Translations under genes and position numbers: made by a program
Assembly (NCBI GenBank): GCA_965219445.1
Contig: CBDCNQ010000002.1
Coordinates: forward strand, 576,001-640,000
DNA from: Longimicrobiales bacterium
GTDB taxonomy: Bacteria > Gemmatimonadota > Gemmatimonadetes > Longimicrobiales > Gaopeijiaceae
DNA length: 64,000 bases
Direction of reading: 5' to 3'
The notes under the pieces: model-generated
Seen by the model: only the letters and a program-made list of their open reading frames with translations
Told to the model about the DNA's origin: nothing
Database searches by the model: none
Part shown: in pieces, positions 6,204 to 44,808 of the stretch
Numbering within the stretch: position 1 is the first letter of the stretch
How the letters are laid out: every line of letters starts with the position of its first letter

Positions 6204-6233
6204 GGAGGTTGGGTCAATAGGTGTGTAAATGTT

Positions 6234-7478
6234 TCAGGCGGCGTTTTTCCGCTGTTGGGTTGAGACGGGCTTTCCGTCTTCGAACTTTCTTCCTTCAAAT
6301 ACGTCCTTGAGGAGGTGAGGAGCGTCGAGCCTTCTGAAGCGCTTCTCCGCCACCAAGAGCAGCTTCCAGATCAGCGCCGTAGCGCTCTCGACCCGCTTGA
6401 AGCGCTTCGCCGCCGTTGTCCTGAGCCGTACTGCGGCAAAGGGGCTCTCGACCACGTTCGTCGTGCGTAGATGCTTCCAGTGGTCCTCGGGGAAGTCGTA
6501 GAACGCCACCATCCGCTCCCAGTCGTCCTCGAGTACATCCACCGCCTTCGGATACCACGGTCTGTAGCGCCTGGCGAACGCCTCACGGGCCTTCAGCGCC
6601 TCGGACCGCCTCGGTGCGTAGACCACGGTCCTGAGAAGGTCCTTCGCCTCGCTCTGCTCCCGCTGAGGCAGCCGGTCCAGCACGTTCCTCATCTTGTGGT
6701 TCCAGCACCGTTGCTCGCCCGCCTCAGGCCATACCTGCCGTACTGCGCCCCAGATCGCCGCGTTGCCGTCCGCCATCAAAAGCCGGGGCGCCTCGATGCC
6801 GCGTGCCTTCAGATCCCGCAACACCTCGGACCAGGACTCGACCGACTCTCGGTAGCCCGATCTCAGGGCCAACACCTCCTTCGTACCATCTCGCATCGCA
6901 CCGAGAACCACCAGCAGCGCTGCCTTGTCCCGCTCGAGCCCCGCCTTCACGTAGATCCCGTCCGCCCAGACGTAGACGACCTCACGGTCGGCCAGCGAGC
7001 GCTTCGACCATTCCTCGAATTTCCTTGTCCATCCCGCCCGCAGCCGCCAAATCGAAGACTTCGACAACGGGGCCCCCTCGCCCAGCAGGCCCCGCATCGC
7101 CAGCTCGAAGTCTCCCTCCGCCAGCCCGTGCAGATACAGCTCCGGAAGCAGAGCACCCACCTCCTTCGTCCGTCGTGCGAACAACGGCAACACCCGACTC
7201 TCGAACCGCTCCTCAATGCCTCGAACCCGGGGCCGTCGGAGCATGATCGTGCCCGAGCTCATCGCCAGCCGCCGAGCCTTGCCGTAGCCGTTGCGGTAGC
7301 CTGGCGCCGGGTCTACGACCGTCTTCCGCTCCGACTTCTCCCGGCCGAGCAACTCCGTCACTTCCTCCTCCAGAATCCGCTGGACCATCTCCTGGGCCTT
7401 CTCACGAACCAGCGCTTCCAAGCACTCCCACGTCGGCGTGCTGGACTCACTCTCGGGTCCCACCATATTCTTCCTCAC
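6234..7478 (-). CDS. IS256-family DDE transposase
   Basis: YRNGY, WADGIY, LMADG, QRCWNHK, LRTTNVVES motifs; 414 aa. Confidence 0.95.
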   Translation of the reverse strand: MRKNMVGPESESSTPTWECLEALVREKAQEMVQRILEEEVTELLGREKSERKTVVDPAPGYRNGYGKARRLAMSSGTIMLRRPRVRGIEERFESRVLPLFARRTKEVGALLPELYLHGLAEGDFELAMRGLLGEGAPLSKSSIWRLRAGWTRKFEEWSKRSLADREVVYVWADGIYVKAGLERDKAALLVVLGAMRDGTKEVLALRSGYRESVESWSEVLRDLKARGIEAPRLLMADGNAAIWGAVRQVWPEAGEQRCWNHKMRNVLDRLPQREQSEAKDLLRTVVYAPRRSEALKAREAFARRYRPWYPKAVDVLEDDWERMVAFYDFPEDHWKHLRTTNVVESPFAAVRLRTTAAKRFKRVESATALIWKLLLVAEKRFRRLDAPHLLKDVFEGRKFEDGKPVSTQQRKNAA

Positions 7479-7574
7479 GAGGCATCGTTCCTTTCCCCCG
7501 GGCGCTCACCCGGGATTCGCTGGTTAACTTCTTACTACCTAGCGGAAAGGTACGTCGCCTCTTTTTTTACACAC

Positions 7575-9169
7575 CCTTCTATGGGGCTGGCGGTCAAGAC
7601 GCACCTTCCCCACGCGCCGTCGGCTCATTTTTTGACCGTCGGCGTCCGCATGGTTTGGATTGCCCGGTCGACGACTCAGGGTGGGGAGGGGTGCGCTCGC
7701 AGGGTCCGCATCGCAGTCCGGAAGACGTTCACAGCCGTCGCGTTCTCCGCTCTGGAGCGGGAACCATCCTTCTATCTGGGACTCTGTGGCCCATCGCTTC
7801 GTTCGGCTCTTCCAGGGGTGCATAGCCTTTGAGTGGGGGCTTGGGCTCTCTGCCCCGGCCCACGGTGTGTATGGATGCTGTCCCCTGTAACCGGTTCGCT
7901 TCCGTTTCGTCGGACCCCATGTTGTGACCGCTTTCGACCCCACGCTCGCCGATCCCAGGCCGGTTTACTCCGTCGCTTCCAGTCTCTTGGGGTCGTACGC
8001 TTCGCCCGTGCGCCACACCGCTAGCACGATCGAGGCGAGCTGACGCGCGATCGTCAGCTTCGCCAGATTCGGCTTCGTGCCCCCCTCCAGGAGTCGCTCG
8101 TAGTGGCGGTACAAGGGTTCGTTTTCGGCCCGACCGATCACCGTCGTCGCCGCGCCCTTGAACACACGCTTCAGCGTGTGGTTGAAGTTCCGATTCAGCC
8201 CCCGCGTCTGCTGTACCGGTTCCCTTACCCACCGCCCACCCGGACCCCGCACCCAGTCCGACGAGCTCCGCATCACCACGCCCAGTCCGCAGTACGCCCA
8301 GAACCTGCTCCGGCTCTGGAACCGGTACGGCGTCACCACCACCGGCAGGAGCTCCGCCGTCCGGATCGGACCCAGACCCGGGCACGTCTTCAGCACATGC
8401 CACTCTCGATGCTTGCGTGCTTCCGCCAGCAACGCCTTCTCGGCCTTCGCCCTCAATGCCACGAGTGCGTCGTGCTCCTCGTACAGCAACCCGGCCGTCG
8501 TCCTGCTCGCTTCCGGCAGCTTGGCCAACCACTCCTCCCGGTCGCGCTTTAAGTAGACCGAGCGCCCCGCGCCGTAGGCCACTCCTCTCGAGCGCAGCAC
8601 GCTCTTGAGCCGGTTCTTCACCCGCACCGTGTCGCCGACCAGGAAGTCGTAGCTCTTCGCCCGTTCCCCCAGCCGCCTGAACTGGCCCCGGTTCTTGTAG
8701 ACCCTCGTCTCCAGTGATCCGATCCGCAGCTTCTCCGCCAGGGCAAACGCGTCCAGCTTGTCGGTCTTCGGGCCCCGGCTCTTGCCGACCCCCGCCACCG
8801 TCAGCTCCTCCACGTGCGGCTCCAGCACCTCGTACAGCCACCCCGACAGCGTCCCTTCTTCCAGGCATAAGTGCCGGTTCCTCGGAATCCCTCGCAGCAC
8901 CTCGATCAGCGCCCGCGCGTTCGTCTCCACCACCTGCGAGCCCAAGCGCTTGCCGCTGGGGCCTACAATCCCCAGCGTGCAGCTCGACGCGTGTGCGTCG
9001 AGTCCGATATATCTCTCCATCGGCGTTCTCCTCTTGGATAGGTGGGTTGCTTCCTTGCGCGAACAATGATGAACGCGCACCCGCTCCCGGAGGAGAACGC
9101 CTCTTCGTCTTCGGGCTGCTTCGCTGCTGATCGGTACCGGTAGCCGTCGCCATGCCCCTATGATGCCTT
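7575..9169 (-). mobile_element. IS110-family (IS1111-like layout) element, copy A
   Basis: Bounded by CCTT at 7575-7578 and 9166-9169; long non-coding region downstream of the transposase; near-identical copies at 25905-27191 and 39552-41145. Confidence 0.9.
7965..9020 (-). CDS. IS110-family DEDD recombinase/transposase
   Basis: YIGLDAH, CLEEG, KTDKLDA (DEDD), TCPGLGP, WAYCGLG..RSSS; start at MERYIG. Confidence 0.92.
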   Translation of the reverse strand: MERYIGLDAHASSCTLGIVGPSGKRLGSQVVETNARALIEVLRGIPRNRHLCLEEGTLSGWLYEVLEPHVEELTVAGVGKSRGPKTDKLDAFALAEKLRIGSLETRVYKNRGQFRRLGERAKSYDFLVGDTVRVKNRLKSVLRSRGVAYGAGRSVYLKRDREEWLAKLPEASRTTAGLLYEEHDALVALRAKAEKALLAEARKHREWHVLKTCPGLGPIRTAELLPVVVTPYRFQSRSRFWAYCGLGVVMRSSSDWVRGPGGRWVREPVQQTRGLNRNFNHTLKRVFKGAATTVIGRAENEPLYRHYERLLEGGTKPNLAKLTIARQLASIVLAVWRTGEAYDPKRLEATE

Positions 9170-9182
9170 TGATCCTAGCTCC

Positions 9183-10666: not shown

Positions 10667-13803
<3,137 letters not shown>

Positions 13804-13804
<1 letters not shown>

Positions 13805-14781
13805 CACTTCAGGAGTCCCGCTTTCCAGGTTTCGGCAAGAGCTGTCGACAGACCACGGGCCACCTTGCCAACGAGTTGGAGAAGGTCCCGCACCTCGTCC
13901 GCTTTGATATGAATCCTCCGACCGACGACAGCCTCCCTGTCCGCCGCCTTGGCGACGTAGGCCTGGTCCACGACTCCCATTCTGTGCGCGATGAGATGGC
14001 GCCTCTGAAAAGCACGAACGAGCGATTGCCATTCACCCGCAGTCACTGCAGAAGACAGGTCTACGCCATAAGCTTCTTGGAGGTGCCTCTTCGCTCCTTC
14101 AAGATTCTGGAAGCTAATCCTGCCCACGATGGCGCGGTTGGTCGCGTTCCTCGCGTAGACTCGGCACAGTTCGCGCCCGAACCCGTCGAAGACCGACACG
14201 CAATCCTCCAACCCGTTCTCGATGAGCCTCCTAGAAACGTCTCTCTCCGTGCTCTCTGCCAAGTCCATCATCTTTGCGACAACTTCGATGTTCTTCTCGA
14301 AGATCTGGAGCGAATTGTGTTGGCCGCAGTCGGGACAAAATGCAAAAACACCGTAGACGGAGTAGCGGAGCGTACAATTGGTACAGACCACCTGGGTTTC
14401 GAGCTGCTTCTCCCTGTAGTGGCGGATCGGCAACAGACTATCGGGCTTGAACGTCAATGAGAACCCGATTCCGAATGGCCCTTTCGGCTCCAGGTTGAAC
14501 TCCATCTTCTTGAGATCCCTGTGGATTGCGTCTGTGACTTCCCGCGTGGCAACCGACTCGATATACTTGACCTGCTCTTTGGTCCAGAAGTAGTCGTGTG
14601 CCGCAGTATGGCCGCAGTACGGGCAGTGGCACGGAAGGTCTTTTCCCTCAAGCCCAGTGCCGAACTCGACCTTGAAGTATCCCTCGCAGTCCGACTGGGG
14701 ACACTCACGGCCCGTGAAGCCGTCTTCATCGGGCTTGATGGGGATCGAAATGCGATTGCCAAGTCTGCGGAGGTGATTCAT
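13804..14781 (-). CDS. Zn-finger protein with C-terminal HEPN-like RxxxxH motif, inserted between hsdS and hsdR
   Basis: Cys clusters [43 protein letters not shown] overlaps at both ends. Confidence 0.7.
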
Positions 14782-23132: not shown

Positions 23133-23640
23133 GGAGGTTGGGTCAATAGGTGTGTAAACGTATCAGGCGGCGTTTTTCCGCTGTTGGGTTGAGACGGGCT
23201 TTCCGTCTTCGAACTTCCTTCCTTCAAACACGTCCTTGAGGAGGTGAGGAGCGTCGAGCCTTCGGAACCGCTTCTCGGCCACCAAGAGCAACTTCCAGAT
23301 CAGCGCCGTAGCGCTCTCGACCCGCTTGAATCGCTTCGCCGCCGTCGTCCTGAGCCGTAGCGCAGCGAACGGGCTCTCGACCACGTTCGTCGTGCGTAGA
23401 TGCTTCCAGTGATCCTCGGGGAAGTCGTAGAACGCCACCATCCGCTCCCAGTCGTCCTCGAGTACGTCCACCGCCTTCGGATACCACGGCCTGTAGCGCC
23501 TGGCGAACACTTCGCGGGCCTTCACAGCCTCGGCCCGGCTCGGTGCGTAGACCACGGCCCTTGAGAAGATCCTTCGCCTCGCTCTGCTCCCGCTGCGGCA
23601 GCCGGTCCAGCACGTTCCTCATCTTGTGGTTCCAGCACCG
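23133..23640 (-). mobile_element. IS256-family partial copy (3' third of transposase plus IRR)
   Basis: Same IRR as 6204; near-identical C-terminal protein; homology stops at ~23640; internal 1-nt frameshift near 23560. Confidence 0.9.
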
Positions 23641-23960
23641 TCGCTGCGTCGCGGAGGCTGATCAGCACCTTGAAGGCGCTTCCCAACCGGCGCATCAACG
23701 AGGTAGAAGGTCTTCCATTCTTTCCTCTACATACTCGTGCGACTGTCCACTTGGCGGTTGGAGTCGCCGCGGAGTATTTCAATTGCTGAATTTCAACGTG
23801 TTCTGCGTCAACCAAGTTATCGGCGCCAAAGAGTAGGGTGCAGTCCACACCATCCCAGTAGCTTCCATCACCGTTCGTGGCGGTCACCGCCACCTTCTTT
23901 GGCTGGCTGGCGGTGCGGGTATGTGCCGAGGGGTCCGATAGGGTGCGCGCCCATGTGTCG
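23641..23960 (-). pseudogene. Remnant of an N-terminal nuclease-like domain (Cap4/PD-(D/E)xK-like), cut by IS256
   Basis: YWDGVDCTLLFG...EIQQLKYSAA.P..KWTVAR has a D...QxK arrangement like nuclease domains of defence NTPases. Confidence 0.35.
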
Positions 23961-24488: not shown

Positions 24489-24571
24489 TGTTCCTCCTTG
24501 CTAGGAAACGGCAGTGCGGATACATGAAACTGTCCCGGGTTTGAGGTCGGGTCAATAGGTGTGTAAACGTT

Positions 24572-25816
24572 TCAGGCGGCTGCTTTGCGCTGATGAGCTG
24601 AGACGGGCTTACCGTCCCTGAACTTCCTTTCTTCAAACACGTCCTTGAGCAGGTTTGGAGCGTCAAGCCTTCTGAAGCGTTTCTCCGCCACCGTCAGGAG
24701 CTTCCAGATGAGGGCGGTAGCACCTGTCGACGCGCTTAAATCGTTTTGCTGCCGACGTGCGGAGCCGTACCGAAGCGAACGGGCTTTCCACCACATTCGT
24801 CGTCCGTAGATGCTTCCAGTGGGCTTCGGGGAAGTCGTAGAACGTGACCATGCGGTCCCAGTCATCCTCGAGCACCGTCACAGCTTTCGGGTACCACGGC
24901 CCATAACGCTTGCCGAACGCCTGACGAGCTTTGAGCGCCGCGGCCCGTGTCGAGGCGTAGACGACTGTGCGCAGCAGTTCCTTGGCCTCTGACTGCCCGC
25001 GCTGCGGCAGCCGATCCAGGATGTTCCTCATCTTGTGATTCCAGCACCGCTGCTCGCCGGCCTCAGGCCACACCGTCCTCGCCGCGCCCCAGATCGCCGC
25101 GTTACCGTCGGCCATCAGTAGCTTCGGCGCTGCGAGGCCTCGAGCCTTGAGACCCCGAAAGACCTCCGCCCACGAGTCCGTTGACTCCCGGTAGCCTGAT
25201 GTGACGGCCAGAACCTCTTTCGTCCCGTCGCGCATGGCTCCCATCACCACCAGCAGCGCCGCTTTGTCTCGCTCCAGGCCCGCCTTCACGTAGATCCCGT
25301 CCGCCCATACGTAGACGACCTCACGGTCCGCCAAGGACCGCTTCGCCCACATCTCGAACTCACTCGACCACACGGCCCTGAGCCTGCGGATCGAAGCCTT
25401 CGACAGCGGCGCCCCCTCACCGAGTGGGCCCCTGAGCGCCAGCTCGAAATCCCCCGCGGCCAACCCGTGTAGGTACAGCTCCGGTATCAACTCCCCTACC
25501 TCCTTCGTCCGTCTCGCAAACAGCGGCAACACCGACTCTCGAAGCGTTCCTCCAGACCCCGTACCCGGGGGCGTCGCACCGTGATCGTGCCCGAACTCAT
25601 CGACAGCCGCCGCGCCTTGCCGTACCCGTTGCGGTAGCCAGGCGCCGCATCCACGGCTGCCTTCCGCTCTGACTTCTCACGGCCGAGGAGCTCGGTGACT
25701 TCCTCCTCCAAGATCTGTTGGATGAACTCCCGGGCCTTTTCACGGACCACTCCCTCCAGGCCCTCCCACAGCGGCATGGTGGACTCGGTCTCGGGTCCCG
25801 CGATATCCTTCCTCAT
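24572..25816 (-). pseudogene. IS256 transposase variant, two frameshifts
   Basis: Three overlapping ORF pieces (25496-25846, 24663-25532, 24572-24865) rebuild a homologue of 6234-7478 with many amino-acid differences. Confidence 0.88.
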
Positions 25817-25904
25817 GAGGCGACGTTCCTTTCCCCCGGGTGGCAACCCGGGACTCGCTGCTTAATGGTCAGCGGAAAGGTACGTCGCCTCTCTTTTTAC
25901 ACAC

Positions 25905-27191
25905 CCTTCTATGGGGCTGGCGGTCAAGACGCACCTTCCCCACGCGCCGTCGGCTCATTTTTTTGACCGTCGGCGTCCGCATGGTTTGGATTGCCCGGTC
26001 GACGACTCAGGGTGGGGAGGGGTGCGCTCGCAGGGTCCGCATCGCAGTCCGGAAGACGTTCACAGCCGTCGCGTTCTCCGCTCTGGAGCGGGAACCATCC
26101 TTCTATCTGGGACTCTGTGGCCCATCGCTTCGTTCGGCTCTCCAGGGGTGCATAGCCTTTGAGTGGGGGCTTGGGCTCTCTGCCCCACGGTGTGTATGGA
26201 TGCTGTCCCCTGTAACCGGTTCGCTTCCGTTTCGTCGGACCCCATGTTGTGACCGCTTTCGACCCCACGCTCGCCGATCCCGGCCCGGTTTACTCCGTCG
26301 CTTCCAGTCTCTTGGGGTCGTACGCTTCGCCCGTGCGCCACACCGCTAGCACGATCGAGGCGAGCTGACGCGCGATCGTCAGCTTCGCCAGATTCGGCTT
26401 CGTGCCCCCCTCTAGGAGTCGCTCGTAGTGGCGGTACAAGGGTTCGTTTTCGGCCCGACCGATCACCGTCGTCGCCGCGCCCTTGAACACACGCTTCAGC
26501 GTGTGGTTGAAGTTCCGATTCAGCCCCCGCGTCTCCGGCAGCTTGGCCAACCACTCCTCCCGGTCGCGCTTCAAGTAGACCGAGCGCCCCGCGCCGTAGG
26601 CCACTCCTCTCGAGCGCAGCACGCTCTTGAGCCGGTTCTTCACCCGCACCGTGTCGCCGACCAAGAAGTCGTAGCTCTTCGCCCGTTCCCCCAGCCGCCT
26701 GAACTGGCCCCGGTTCTTGTAGACCGTCGTCTCCAGTGATCCGATCCGCAGCTTCTCCGCCAGGGCAAACGCGTCCAGCTTGTCGGTCTTCGGGCCCCGG
26801 CTCTTGCCGACCCCCGCCACCGTCAGCTCCTCCACGTGCGGCTTCAGCACCTCGTACAGCCACCCCGACAGCGTCCCTTCTTCCAGGCATAAGTGCCGGT
26901 TCCTCGGAATCCCTCGCAGCACCTCGATCAGCGCCCGCGCGTTCGTCTCCACCACCTGCGAGCCCAAGCGCTTGCCGCTGGGGCCTACAATCCCCAGCGT
27001 GCAGCTCGACGCGTGTGCGTCGAGTCCGATATATCTCTCCATCGGCGTTCTCCTCTTGGATAGGTGGGTTGCTTCCTTGCGCGAACAATGATGAACGCGC
27101 ACCCGTTCCCGGAGGAGAACGCCTCTTCGTCTTCGGGCTGCTTCGCTGCTGATCGGTACCGGTAGCGGTCGCCATGCCCCTATGATGCCTT
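25905..27191 (-). mobile_element. IS110-family element, copy C (303-bp internal deletion)
   Basis: CCTT cores at 25905-25908 and 27188-27191; both ends and the non-coding region are retained. Confidence 0.88.
26290..27042 (-). pseudogene. IS110 transposase with in-frame 101-aa deletion
   Basis: LAKLPE is joined directly to TRGLNRNF; 753 nt versus 1056 nt in the intact copies. Confidence 0.9.
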
Positions 27192-27204
27192 TGATCCTAA
27201 CTCC

Positions 27205-27425
27205 AATAGGATAAGTCGTTGTGCCGGAGCAACGCGCTGGTGGTAGAGCTGTGCAACTTCTCCCAATGGTGCTTCAGTCGTAATTAAGACATCACCCGGT
27301 CGGGGAATGCCACGTTGCATCCAAGAGCCATAGTTCTCAATTGCAATGAATTCTGTAGGCCTACTGATCCGTCCTCTCTTCACAACCTTGGCCGTGATGA
27401 GCGGGACACCAGAAGGTGATTTCGG
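27205..27425 (-). pseudogene. Orphan HsdS target-recognition-domain fragment
   Basis: SGVPLITAKVVKRGRI..EFI...WMQRGIP.PGDVLITTEAPLGEVAQL...AQRLILL is a typical TRD sequence; cut at the IS256 end. Confidence 0.75.
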
Positions 27426-27878
27426 AGGCAGAGAGATGAAGGATGGGACCAAGAGAGAGAATGGAAATGAATGGAACGCCCTCCTCGGCGCAGCGAGCAG
27501 GCACCGAACTCGGCGCAGGCGACCGGATCACCCTCGGGCAGGAAGCCGGCACTCTTCAAACGGGTCGCTCGCAACCTCGCCGCCGCCGCCGAGCAGCTAC
27601 ACCCAGCACCCGCGTAACGCCTCTGAGCCTCGCCCCCCCTGCGCCTCGGATGGGTTCACTCCGGGGCGGTGCTCGGCGTCCGCTGCATTCCCGGTTCACG
27701 CACGCCTCACGGATACATCGCCCCGCACAGCATCCAAATCGCTGCTTCCCACCTTCCCCGAGGACGCACCGCACCCTGACCTCGCCCCACCGCTCTTCCG
27801 CAAGGCGAGATCCCGCACTCTCAGCACCCCTGGTGACGGATCCGGGCTAGTCGAGCCGCCTCGGTTGCCGCGGGCCGA

Positions 27879-29448
27879 CTACCGCCTGCCCCGCTCACGC
27901 AAGATCCGAATGGCGGCGCCGAGGTTGTTCTGCGTCATAGCCCAGTCGAGGGGTACTCGATCGCGCGTCCGCTCCTTGAGCGCCTCGGTGAAGGCATCCA
28001 CAGCCTGCTCAAGGCGCTCTGTCCCGCTCTCTCGCTCGCCCAAGGCCGTAAGGGCGACGCCGAGGTTGTTCTGCGTCATAGCCCAGTTGAGGGGCACTCG
28101 ATCGCGCGTCCATTCCTTGAGCGCCTCAGCATAGGCATCCACGGCCTGCTCAAGGCGCTCTGTCCCGCTTTCCCGCTCGCCCAGGGCCGTAAGGGCGCCG
28201 CCGAGGTTGTTTTGCGTCGCGGCCCAGTTGAGAGGCACTCGATCGCGCGTCTGCTCCTTGAGCGCCTCAGCATAGGCATCCACGGCCTGCTCAAGGCGCT
28301 CTGTCCCGCTTTCCCGCTCGCCCATGGCCGAAAGGGCGACGCCGAGGTTGTTTTGCGTCATAGCCCAGTTGAGGGGCACTCGATCGCGCGTCCATTCCTC
28401 GAGCGCCTCGGTGTGGGCATCCACGGCCTGCTCAAGGCGCTCTGTCCCGCTTTCTCGCTCGCCCAAGGCCGTAAGGGCGGCGCCGAGGTTGTTCTGCGTC
28501 ATAGCCCAGTCGAGGGGTACTCGATCGCGCGTCCGCTCGTTGAGCGCCTCAGCATAGGCATCCACGGCCTGCTTCAAGGCGCTCTGTCCCGCTTTCCCGC
28601 TCGCCTAGGGTCTCAAGGGCGACGCCGAGGTTGTTTTGCGTCGTAGCCCAGTCGAGGGGCACCCGATCGCGCGTCTGCTCCTTGAGCGCCTCGGTGAAGG
28701 CATCCACGGCCTGCTCAAGGCGCTCTGTCCCGGGCTCCCGCTCACCCAGGGTCGCCAGGGCGACGCCAAACGCCATATGCAGGGAGGCGCGACGCTCCGA
28801 TTCGACCGTACCGCCTTCGAGCAGGGCGGCGATCTTCTTGATGACGCCGTTCAGGCCCTTCTCCAGCACCCGGCCGCGTGCTTCCGTTCCCGTGATCGGC
28901 GCTGCAACTCTCAGCGCCTCGGCGGTGAGCTGAGCACGGAGATCCTCGTGGAAGTCATCCTGCAGCCTCACGTTAACCAACTCGTAAGGCAGGTCCGCTC
29001 GATGAAGTGTGCCGTCCCCCTCGCGCGGCACGAACCACAAATTTAGTGCTTTTCCGGGATCTTTGACCGAACCGACGACTGCCAAGTCGGCATTCCACGT
29101 TTTCAACACTGTGAGGGTGCCCTTCCGCATGGCTGGCCGCCAATCGTACGCAGCACCAAGTGCTGACACGACACGGGCAGAGCGGACCAATTCGATGCCC
29201 TCAACGCCAGTGAAGGCCTCTTCGACCGTGCTCGTGTCACGTCCGGCAGCATCGTGTTGCAACCAGCACAACACCAAGCGAAATCTCTGTTCAGGAAGCG
29301 GCGGTCTGCTCTTGAAAGCATTGGCGATGGCCAACTGCGTCCGTTGAGGCGACGGCAGGAATTGCGTAAAGAACCCCTTGAGCCAACCCCTTAACACTGC
29401 CAAGACGATGGCGACGATCCAGACGACCGGACTCGTTAACAACTCCAT
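27879..29448 (-). CDS. Membrane-anchored TPR-repeat protein (1-nt frameshift at ~28573)
   Basis: N-terminal TM helix; WAxTQNNLGxAL TPR repeats; one repeat reads CTGCTTCAAGG where the others read CTGCTCAAGG. Confidence 0.85.
27915..28765 (-). repeat. About 6 tandem 141-bp (47-aa) coding repeats
   Basis: Unit WAMTQNNLGxALTALGERESGTERLEQAVDAxxEALKExTRDRVPLD/N, highly similar at DNA level. Confidence 0.92.
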
Positions 29449-38982: not shown

Positions 38983-39056
<74 letters not shown>

Positions 39057-39538: not shown

Positions 39539-39700
39539 GGAGCTAGGATCAAAGGCATCATAGGGGCATGGCGACCGCTACCGGTACCGATCAGCAGCGA
39601 AGCAGCCCGAAGACGAAGAGGCGTTCTCCTCCGGGAACGGGTGCGCGTTCATCATTGTTCGCGCAAGGAAGCAACCCACCTATCCAAGAGGAGAACGCCC

Positions 39701-40756
39701 ATGGAGAGGTATATCGGACTCGACGCACACGCGTCGAGCTGCACGCTGGGGATTGTAGGCCCCAGCGGCAAGCGCTTGGGCTCGCAGGTGGTGGAGACGA
39801 ACGCGCGGGCGCTGATCGAGGTGCTGCGAGGGATTCCGAGGAACCGGCACTTATGCCTGGAAGAAGGGACGCTGTCGGGGTGGCTGTACGAGGTGCTGAA
39901 GCCGCACGTGGAGGAGCTGACGGTGGCGGGGGTCGGCAAGAGCCGGGGCCCGAAGACCGACAAGCTGGACGCGTTTGCCCTGGCGGAGAAGCTGCGGATC
40001 GGATCACTGGAGACGACGGTCTACAAGAACCGGGGCCAGTTCAGGCGGCTGGGGGAACGGGCGAAGAGCTACGACTTCTTGGTCGGCGACACGGTGCGGG
40101 TGAAGAACCGGCTCAAGAGCGTGCTGCGCTCGAGAGGAGTGGCCTACGGCGCGGGGCGCTCGGTCTACTTAAAGCGCGACCGGGAGGAGTGGTTGGCCAA
40201 GCTGCCGGAAGCGAGCAGGACGACGGCCGGGTTGCTGTACGAGGAGCACGACGCACTCGTGGCATTGAGGGCGAAGGCCGAGAAGGCGTTGCTGGCGGAA
40301 GCACGCAAGCATCGAGAGTGGCATGTGCTGAAGACGTGCCCGGGTCTGGGTCCGATCCGGACGGCGGAGCTCCTGCCGGTGGTGGTGACGCCGTACCGGT
40401 TCCAGAGCCGGAGCAGGTTCTGGGCGTACTGCGGACTGGGCGTCGTGATGCGGAGCTCGTCGGACTGGGTGCGGGGTCCGGGTGGGCGGTGGGTAAGGGA
40501 ACCGGTACAGCAGACGCGGGGGCTGAATCGGAACTTCAACCACACGCTGAAGCGTGTGTTCAAGGGCGCAGCGACGACGGTGATCGGTCGGGCCGAGGAC
40601 GAGCCCTTGTACCGCCACTACGAGCGACTCCTGGAGGGGGGCACGAAGCCGAATCTGGCGAAGCTGACGATCGCGCGTCAGCTCGCCTCGATCGTGCTAG
40701 CGGTGTGGCGCACGGGCGAAGCGTACGACCCCAAGAGACTGGAAGCGACGGAGTAA
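39701..40756 (+). CDS. IS110-family DEDD recombinase/transposase
   Basis: Same protein as 7965-9020 with a few substitutions; GAGGAG RBS. Confidence 0.93.
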   Translation: MERYIGLDAHASSCTLGIVGPSGKRLGSQVVETNARALIEVLRGIPRNRHLCLEEGTLSGWLYEVLKPHVEELTVAGVGKSRGPKTDKLDAFALAEKLRIGSLETTVYKNRGQFRRLGERAKSYDFLVGDTVRVKNRLKSVLRSRGVAYGAGRSVYLKRDREEWLAKLPEASRTTAGLLYEEHDALVALRAKAEKALLAEARKHREWHVLKTCPGLGPIRTAELLPVVVTPYRFQSRSRFWAYCGLGVVMRSSSDWVRGPGGRWVREPVQQTRGLNRNFNHTLKRVFKGAATTVIGRAEDEPLYRHYERLLEGGTKPNLAKLTIARQLASIVLAVWRTGEAYDPKRLEATE

Positions 40757-41120
40757 ACCGGCCTGGGATCGGCGAGCGTGGGGTCGAAAGCGGTCACAAC
40801 ATGGGGTCCGACGAAACGGAAGCGAACCGGTTACAGGGGACAGCATCCATACACACCGTGGGCCGGGGCAGAGAGCCCAAGCCCCCACTCAAAGGCTATG
40901 CACCCCTGGAGAGCCGAACGAAGCGATGGGCCACAGAGTCCCAGATAGAAGGATGGTTCCCGCTCCAGAGCGGAGAACGCGACGGCTGTGAACGTCTTCC
41001 GGACTGCGATGCGGACCCTGCGAGCGCACCCCTCCCCACCCTGAGTCGTCGACCGGGCAATCCAAACCATGCGGACGCCGACGGTCAAAAAATGAGCCGA
41101 CGGCGCGTGGGGAAGGTGCG
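40757..41120 (+). ncRNA. Putative bridge/seek RNA of the IS110 element (also in copies A and C on the minus strand)
   Basis: Two stem-enclosed internal loops (40834-40908, 40908-40966) carry TACACACC and TCAAAGG (target matches) and ATAGAAGG (donor junction match). RNA ends are not determined. Confidence 0.75.
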
Positions 41121-41241
41121 TCTTGACCGCCAGCCCCATAGAAGGGTGTGTAAAAAAAGAGGCGACGTACCTTTCCGCTAGGTAGTAAGAAGTTAACCAG
41201 CGAATCCCGGGTGAGCGCCCGGGGGAAAGGAACGATGCCTC

Positions 41242-42486
41242 GTGAGGAAGAATATGGTGGGACCCGAGAGTGAGTCCAGCACGCCGACGTGGGAGTGCTT
41301 GGAAGCGCTGGTTCGTGAGAAGGCCCAGGAGATGGTCCAGCGGATTCTGGAGGAGGAAGTGACGGAGTTGCTCGGCCGGGAGAAGTCGGAGCGGAAGACG
41401 GTCGTAGACCCGGCGCCAGGCTACCGCAACGGCTACGGCAAGGCTCGGCGGCTGGCGATGAGCTCGGGCACGATCATGCTCCGACGGCCCCGGGTTCGAG
41501 GCATTGAGGAGCGGTTCGAGAGTCGGGTGTTGCCGTTGTTCGCACGACGGACGAAGGAGGTGGGTGCTCTGCTTCCGGAGCTGTATCTGCACGGGCTGGC
41601 GGAGGGAGACTTCGAGCTGGCGATGCGGGGCCTGCTGGGCGAGGGGGCCCCGTTGTCGAAGTCTTCGATTTGGCGGCTGCGGGCGGGATGGACAAGGAAA
41701 TTCGAGGAATGGTCGAAGCGCTCGCTGGCCGACCGTGAGGTCGTCTACGTCTGGGCGGACGGGATCTACGTGAAGGCGGGGCTCGAGCGGGACAAGGCAG
41801 CGCTGCTGGTGGTTCTCGGTGCGATGCGAGATGGTACGAAGGAGGTGTTGGCCCTGAGATCGGGCTACCGAGAGTCGGTCGAGTCCTGGTCCGAGGTGTT
41901 GCGGGATCTGAAGGCACGCGGCATCGAGGCGCCCCGGCTTTTGATGGCGGACGGCAACGCGGCGATCTGGGGCGCAGTACGGCAGGTATGGCCTGAGGCG
42001 GGCGAGCAACGGTGCTGGAACCACAAGATGAGGAACGTGCTGGACCGGCTGCCTCAGCGGGAGCAGAGCGAGGCGAAGGACCTTCTCAGGACCGTGGTCT
42101 ACGCACCGAGGCGGTCCGAGGCGCTGAAGGCCCGTGAGGCGTTCGCCAGGCGCTACAGACCGTGGTATCCGAAGGCGGTGGATGTACTCGAGGACGACTG
42201 GGAGCGGATGGTGGCGTTCTACGACTTCCCCGAGGACCACTGGAAGCATCTACGCACGACGAACGTGGTCGAGAGCCCCTTTGCCGCAGTACGGCTCAGG
42301 ACAACGGCGGCGAAGCGCTTCAAGCGGGTCGAGAGCGCTACGGCGCTGATCTGGAAGCTGCTCTTGGTGGCGGAGAAGCGCTTCAGAAGGCTCGACGCTC
42401 CTCACCTCCTCAAGGACGTATTTGAAGGAAGAAAGTTCGAAGACGGAAAGCCCGTCTCAACCCAACAGCGGAAAAACGCCGCCTGA
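41242..42486 (+). CDS. IS256-family DDE transposase
   Basis: Protein identical to 6234-7478 in the ORF track. Confidence 0.95.
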   Translation: MRKNMVGPESESSTPTWECLEALVREKAQEMVQRILEEEVTELLGREKSERKTVVDPAPGYRNGYGKARRLAMSSGTIMLRRPRVRGIEERFESRVLPLFARRTKEVGALLPELYLHGLAEGDFELAMRGLLGEGAPLSKSSIWRLRAGWTRKFEEWSKRSLADREVVYVWADGIYVKAGLERDKAALLVVLGAMRDGTKEVLALRSGYRESVESWSEVLRDLKARGIEAPRLLMADGNAAIWGAVRQVWPEAGEQRCWNHKMRNVLDRLPQREQSEAKDLLRTVVYAPRRSEALKAREAFARRYRPWYPKAVDVLEDDWERMVAFYDFPEDHWKHLRTTNVVESPFAAVRLRTTAAKRFKRVESATALIWKLLLVAEKRFRRLDAPHLLKDVFEGRKFEDGKPVSTQQRKNAA

Positions 42487-42516
42487 AACATTTACACACC
42501 TATTGACCCAACCTCC

Positions 42517-44625: not shown

Positions 44626-44734
44626 CCGACTCTCCTGTGGACGATTGGTTTCCCGTCACATCCGTGAAAACGATGGAGCGCGGGGTCTTGCTTTCGGTTC
44701 GTATCGGGGGGTGATACGGACGTGCTTCGTGCAG

Positions 44735-44808
<74 letters not shown>

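Follow-up and report, generated by a model that had tools for sequence, protein, structure and literature searches.

An IS110-family parasite of the IS256 left inverted repeat, likely directed by a guide RNA

Relation of the element to described systems

The closest counterpart in habit is IS4321/IS5075 of the IS1111 group, a system reportedly linked to Partridge and Hall 2003. IS4321 and IS5075 target the repeats of Tn21 (PMC5001619) and, like the element described here, insert at a fixed base in the terminal repeat of another transposon (a likeness that the initial annotation had already drawn), can fill their targets completely and give imprecise junctions. The target here is the left repeat of IS256, not the 38-bp repeats of the Tn21 family, only one end is used, the subterminal repeats are imperfect, and the element works alike without being a member. 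The IS1111 seekRNA elements ISEc11, ISKpn4, ISPa11, ISPst6 and ISPa25, as described in PMC11187229, resemble it in their long downstream non-coding end, guide order and the junction promoter predicted for it, and ISPa25 and ISKpn4 (46% identical) have a common target, as two lineages do here; however, our element has a different target, and its recombinase is at most 27% identical to its best matches among plasmid proteins. ISEc21 of the IS110 group shares with it a target inside another IS family and the RNA guidance that we predict, but hits an IS3 transposase gene and has its non-coding end upstream (PMC11187229), whereas the element here hits an end repeat and spares the gene. The IS621 bridge recombinase (PMC11208160, PMC13626964) is alike in its DEDD and serine domains (a weak match in the PDB, E 0.023), target and donor guides, shared core and rare excision, and unlike in carrying its RNA in the left end, in its reversed guide order, its REP target and its CT core. 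As to the host, ISCth4 of the IS256 family has the same 25-bp repeats with TGTAAA and 8-bp duplications (PMC7780238), and its binding sites are applied here by analogy.

A literature search over openly available full texts returned nothing on IS110 elements that insert into the ends of IS256. IS256 is absent from the main text of PMC11187229, PMC11208160 and 10.64898/2026.08.14.744561, and the supplementary files of the first two papers, so far as legible, contain neither IS256 nor the target strings. The type of parasitism is known; IS256 as its target was not found before in the literature searched.

The stretch analysed (hereafter the window, 64,000 nucleotides) belongs to a 4.56-Mb, five-contig genome (G000), and its features are collected in Table 1. 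A specific parasite of the IS256 left end is real, and it is likely RNA-guided: we hold with good confidence that an IS1111-type element has repeatedly been placed, by its recombinase and a predicted guide RNA, at one point in the left repeat of IS256, behind bp 15, and that it likely hampers the IS256 that it splits. It offers a natural, countable case of one IS parasitising another, by what is probably a guide, with occupied, free and changed targets standing side by side; this opens to experiment how tolerant the guide is, how long the core is, how precisely the element excises and what it costs the host IS. In many bacteria, elements of the IS256 family disseminate resistance and activate genes (PMC7780238), and an element that naturally splits their ends may point to what holds such spread in check.

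Table 1. Features of the element, its IS256 host and the other IS256 copies of the window
Feature	Position	Strand	Remarks
Outer 15 bp of IS256 left inverted repeat (left target half)	39540..39554	+	same 15 bp open free IS256 copies in other genomes
Shared core AAG	39552-39554	+	last bases of outer left-repeat stub
IS110-family element, IS1111-type layout	39555..41144	+	1,590 bp including one core copy
Predicted -10 box CATCAT of circle-junction promoter	39556..39561	+	17 bp from TTGACC once ends are joined
DEDD recombinase gene	39701..40756	+	351 aa; Pfam PF01548 and PF02371 above cut-off
Predicted guide RNA (seekRNA/bridge RNA type)	40834..40973	+	two lobes, unpaired guide slots; RNAalifold, 15 sequences
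Predicted target guide TACACACC	40850..40857	+	complementary to top strand of right target half
Predicted target guide TCAAAGG	40889..40895	+	equals left target half, would pair with bottom strand; right repeat has TCAATAG
Predicted donor guide ATAGAAGG	40945..40952	+	fits the circle junction of this element
Predicted -35 box TTGACC of circle-junction promoter	41123..41128	+	TTGACC-17-CATCAT
Inner part of IS256 left repeat (bp 16-25)	41145..41154	+	holds family motif TGTAAA, named in PMC7780238
IS256-family transposase gene, intact	41242..42486	+	414 aa; NF033543 295 bits against cut-off of 150; PF00872
IS256 right inverted repeat, unoccupied	42491..42515	-	its flank pairs with left flank of another composite (C2:522562)
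Second IS256::IS110 composite	6205..9181	-	
Third composite	24543..27203	-	likely recombinant; IS256 body at 80% identity, IS110 internally deleted
IS256 right-end fragment, right repeat free	23134..23645	-	

Excision of the element in silico rebuilds a left repeat, GAGCTAGGATCAAAGGGTGTGTAAA, that agrees with the right repeat in 20 of its 25 bases; IS110 sits at the identical base in each of the window's three full IS256 copies, and the window's four right repeats are intact and unoccupied, so that the initial annotation stands on these points. Its core of AAGG, with the element at 39556-41145, is replaced by AAG and an interval one base further left, the circle-junction string staying the same, because five copies in another genome (G064) read ...ATAGAAG up to the right junction and A beyond it, yet keep GG at the left; the second G is thus the element's. 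Locus L032 has an extra AAG at its right junction, which fits a three-base core. AAG stands at both junctions, and there are neither terminal inverted repeats nor a target duplication, as in the IS110 family. The layout is of the IS1111 type in that the long non-coding end lies 3' of the gene (388 bp at the right, 146 bp at the left), while the subterminal inverted repeats match by eye over about 12 bases with two gaps, their longest unbroken run being 5 bp as against 7-17 bp in IS1111. The recombinase scores 39.7 bits for the DEDD RuvC-like N-terminal domain (PF01548), 32.4 bits for Transposase_20 (PF02371) and 112 bits for NF033542, the last under its cut-off of 140. By family analogy, a circle would form at the AAG core and thereby create the promoter of Table 1. 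IS110 circles and go-back or empty-site joints were absent from the contig sets of 4 of 24 public runs, which carries no weight either way since contigs drop rare forms.

The host falls into the Mutator-type DDE transposase family by NF033543 and has the TGTAAA repeats and 8-9-bp duplication of IS256, its own duplication being kept at 9 of 28 left ends here and in 6 of 7 free copies sampled in genome G063. The third composite had been read as proof of independent insertion. Its IS256 body is diverged as described, but its IS110 has lost about 300 bp internally (query 654 to 957), it lacks a target duplication, and it has its left flank in common with a G063 locus holding a different IS256 body; as a likely recombinant, it does little by itself to prove independent insertion. 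A stretch of 2.5 kb including flank (window 26534-29000, also L036) is 99.2% identical to a locus in G063, and this identity suggests recent transfer of the island that holds the only full IS110 copy of G063.

Elsewhere in the window lie five 141-bp repeats (27890-28877) that encode TPR-like units of 47 residues within an apparently frameshifted gene, a type I restriction R gene (10667-14032), and tRNA-Arg(TCT) and tRNA-Met(CAT) (38983-39056 and 44734-44808). The IS256 body has a recurrent breakpoint at CCGAGGC, about base 295-308 (near window 41445), beyond which L287, L289, L291 and L292 continue into unrelated DNA or an IS3-like element, and at which the IS256 fragments C5:415714 and C5:1327232 start.

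Occupied, free and altered IS256 left ends

The claim that IS110 specifically targets the IS256 left repeat was borne out genome-wide. Near-identical IS110 left ends number 24 in this genome; 23 are found behind base 15 of an IS256 left repeat, and the remaining one, C2:336726, is off target, at a site that resembles the guides. The identical site is used in five other genomes (G061, G062, G063, G064 and G268) and in metagenome locus L113. Copies in unrelated flanks, which the initial annotation had named as a threat to its claim, are a minority: the one here, one of six full copies in G064 and one of five in G268. At the other end, 21 of 24 intact IS110 right ends run directly into the inner repeat, the remaining three comprising one in which an inserted intron-like element interrupts this passage, one tandem duplication and the off-target copy. 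That intron-like element belongs to a 1.9-kb group II type with a 508-codon frame containing YADD (G000:C4:1169767-1171667 and 12 more copies); many of the 13 copies follow hairpins, and one lies 3 bp into an inner IS256 left repeat, directly past the IS110 end. Partial tandem duplication of the IS110 right part within composites was seen at G000:C5:1611142-1613245 and in L035.

Counted from the side of the host, 23 of 28 IS256 left ends are occupied (C5:1668550, a chance match, was left out) and all 29 intact right ends are free. The intact left repeat does not occur in this genome, the five free left ends all being changed within the 14-bp target (+G, A-to-G, minus-A, A-to-G and T-to-A). The search for empty left ends that had been proposed thus yielded altered ones here and intact ones in other genomes. 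A free left end of exactly the rebuilt sequence is present in 8 genomes out of 301 in the order and in 44 of 47 metagenome matches, with one occupied and two (L117 and L121) left out as unrelated, in assemblies of which the short-read ones under-report composites. The reconstruction is therefore the natural free end elsewhere, contrary to the other finding that would have told against the claim, namely that IS256 relatives free of IS110 have a left end unlike the one rebuilt.

Genomes differ in how far their targets are filled. G063 has 46 free left ends and one occupied, although its IS110 has an open gene and the same guides, and in G061 the 14-bp target is kept in 5 of 8 free left ends; universal saturation of intact left ends was rejected on these two genomes. 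G064 has five occupied ends and core changes in all ten free ends parsed, as well as in an eleventh, and G210 has core variants of the left repeat in 39 of 42 matches together with an IS110 relative that has other guides.

What insertion does to the host can be approached through ISCth4, the transposase of which binds the repeat in two places, at bp 7-11 and at bp 14-25 (PMC7780238). By this analogy, insertion after bp 15 would part the two sites, moving the tip of the repeat 1.6 kb away from the inner transposase site, so that occupied IS256 copies would move poorly even with an intact transposase gene. Since an ISCth4 junction with only 14 bp of left repeat still integrates, if more slowly (PMC7780238), immobilisation may be partial: IS256 movement should be reduced but perhaps not abolished. 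An active element would in time exhaust the intact targets and leave only changed ends free.

Three of the five changed free ends are likely footprints of imprecise excision or repair, judging from their sequence. These three sit on main-type IS256 with no differences in 1,370 bp of body, and each is altered at the 5' edge of the core, two of them by the donor's G. Donor-type G alleles occur in 1 of 260 family genomes, namely this one, and the footprint alleles are absent from the 259 other family genomes and from G061-G065; none of the three has multiplied. Excision of IS621 is rare (PMC13626964) and another IS110 element copies out (10.1101/2025.10.25.684509), while PMC5001619 describes no deletion junctions for IS4321. 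The three changes could instead be consensus errors at sites that are a mixture of occupied and free, with the other changes being neutral variation, which we regard as less likely. In its favour, the breakpoint of the insertion is where all three changes fall, one of them is the loss of an A from a run of that base, a public run (X1) has contigs with unchanged free left ends (contigs not tied to a host), and bp 13-16 vary in other genomes. It fits less well with the 15-bp stub, which is unchanged at bp 10-15 in 23 of 23 occupied ends, with the identity of the three bodies, with the gain of the donor's G in two cases and with the 1.7% of indels carried by IS4321/IS5075 circle junctions (PMC5001619).

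Probable repeated insertion and possible movement of composites

Repeated independent insertion into IS256 copies already in place is the reading that the data favour. The 22 full IS110 copies fall into 19 haplotypes that differ by a mean of 11 and by up to 25 substitutions, whereas 15 IS256 bodies here show no differences; conversely, IS110 copies with no substitutions ride IS256 bodies 154 differences apart. The number of haplotypes overstates the number of insertions because IS110 copies have a mosaic make-up (four-gamete test failed by 189 of 300 site pairs), and the insertion events cannot be counted since, in addition, many flanks are swapped. Across many G000 composites, some nine left flanks find their target-duplication partner in the right flank of another copy, which may reflect either recombination between 3-kb repeats or mis-assembly.

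Alternatively, insertions were few and the IS256 transposase copied whole 2.98-kb composites, with recombination then mixing the IS110 parts. We judge this improbable for the present genome, where identical IS256 bodies carry IS110 parts up to 25 substitutions apart, four other IS256 types (78-89% identical) are likewise occupied and off-target copies attest to independent movement. Seven composites here keep an 8-9-bp duplication of their own, but target duplications are expected under both models; the capacity of 14 bp of left repeat to support ISCth4 integration would nonetheless permit composites to move. Two other genomes hold hints that they do. Three composites of G268 have in common a private outer allele, GGAACAAAG, and an IS110 with no substitutions, the allele being absent from both free ends, and all five composites of G064 have A at bp 16, seen in none of the free ends parsed; such a shared allele could also spread by gene conversion.

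The predicted guide RNA and its probable reprogramming in relatives

The element is likely steered to the IS256 left end by its own predicted guide RNA, as judged from base matches between guide slots and targets. Alignment folding of 15 sequences with RNAalifold gave a conserved scaffold with variable guide slots, with two-sided changes in only 2 of 33 pairs, and the right end as a whole folds no better than its shuffles (z -1.18). Public RNA runs X15 and X16 cover IS256 only and are hence uninformative on guide-RNA expression and on habitat. The top-strand guide (40850-57) precedes the bottom-strand guide (40889-95), which is the IS1111 order given in PMC11187229. By family analogy, the two guides would pair with the two halves of the target, and the left guide would pass over the right repeat. 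That guide, which like the others had escaped the initial annotation, differs from the right repeat in two bases of the core, a likely reason why the left end is chosen over the right.

Across relatives, the guide slots change with the flanks. Left guides matched their own flanks at 57 of 63 positions in nine pairs (permutation mean 41, p 2e-4, with kin not independent), and right guides at 88 positions in 13 pairs, taking the best of two registers (permutation mean 61, p 5e-5, with the same dependence among kin). The comparison was confined to loci with a mapped flank, set aside off-target or rearranged copies, and omitted the left flanks of L059, L054, L076, L083/84, L088 and L094, where the left end is unsure. 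Among eight variant-guide loci checked, the donor guide tracks the element end in five (L045, L071, L080, L088 and L094) and has no match in L054, L076 and L083. Both target guides occur together in 1.3e-4 of right-end shuffles, a figure for guides picked after they had been seen. That the site is chosen by protein-DNA contacts or with help from the IS256 transposase, the guide matches being incidental, is very improbable, for although the guides are short (7-8 nt) and structural covariation is weak, guides match different targets across relatives, the donor guide changes along with the end of the element at five loci, the shuffles seldom reproduce both target guides and off-target sites look like the guides.

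In L039, the left guide is ATCACTAGG and the left junction lies within the IS256 right repeat, a switch confirmed on one side only because the right junction is rearranged. In L113, the recombinase is 69% identical to ours and the target guides and site are the same, yet its place on the tree is with L046 and L057, whose guides differ. The simplest reading of the L113 sequence is convergent reprogramming, the alternative being that it gained its guides by transfer of the guide region alone. A single origin of IS256 targeting on the protein tree was rejected by the AU test (p 5e-60; group fixed before the test, after the tree had been viewed). The guide series in relatives supplies natural examples of reprogramming, within a recombinase lineage for which no close named relative was found, and for a natural case the record of how guides change, how targets are used and how they may escape is unusually complete.

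One may tentatively see in this an arms race, a reading that we hold to be somewhat doubtful: the element would fill intact left ends, excision footprints would immunise, escape alleles at bp 13-16 would spread elsewhere, guides would shift to the right repeat, and two recombinase lineages would have reached the same 14-bp target between two transposase sites. Against a general rule of escape stand G063, G061 (with the target kept in five of eight free ends) and G210, which has the core variant and in which this IS110 was not found.

Related elements leave further traces: remnants with other left guides lie at G000:C2:661602 and C5:1023334, and a genome of the same genus (G005) has 15 matches to a 40%-identical IS110, several of them clustered.
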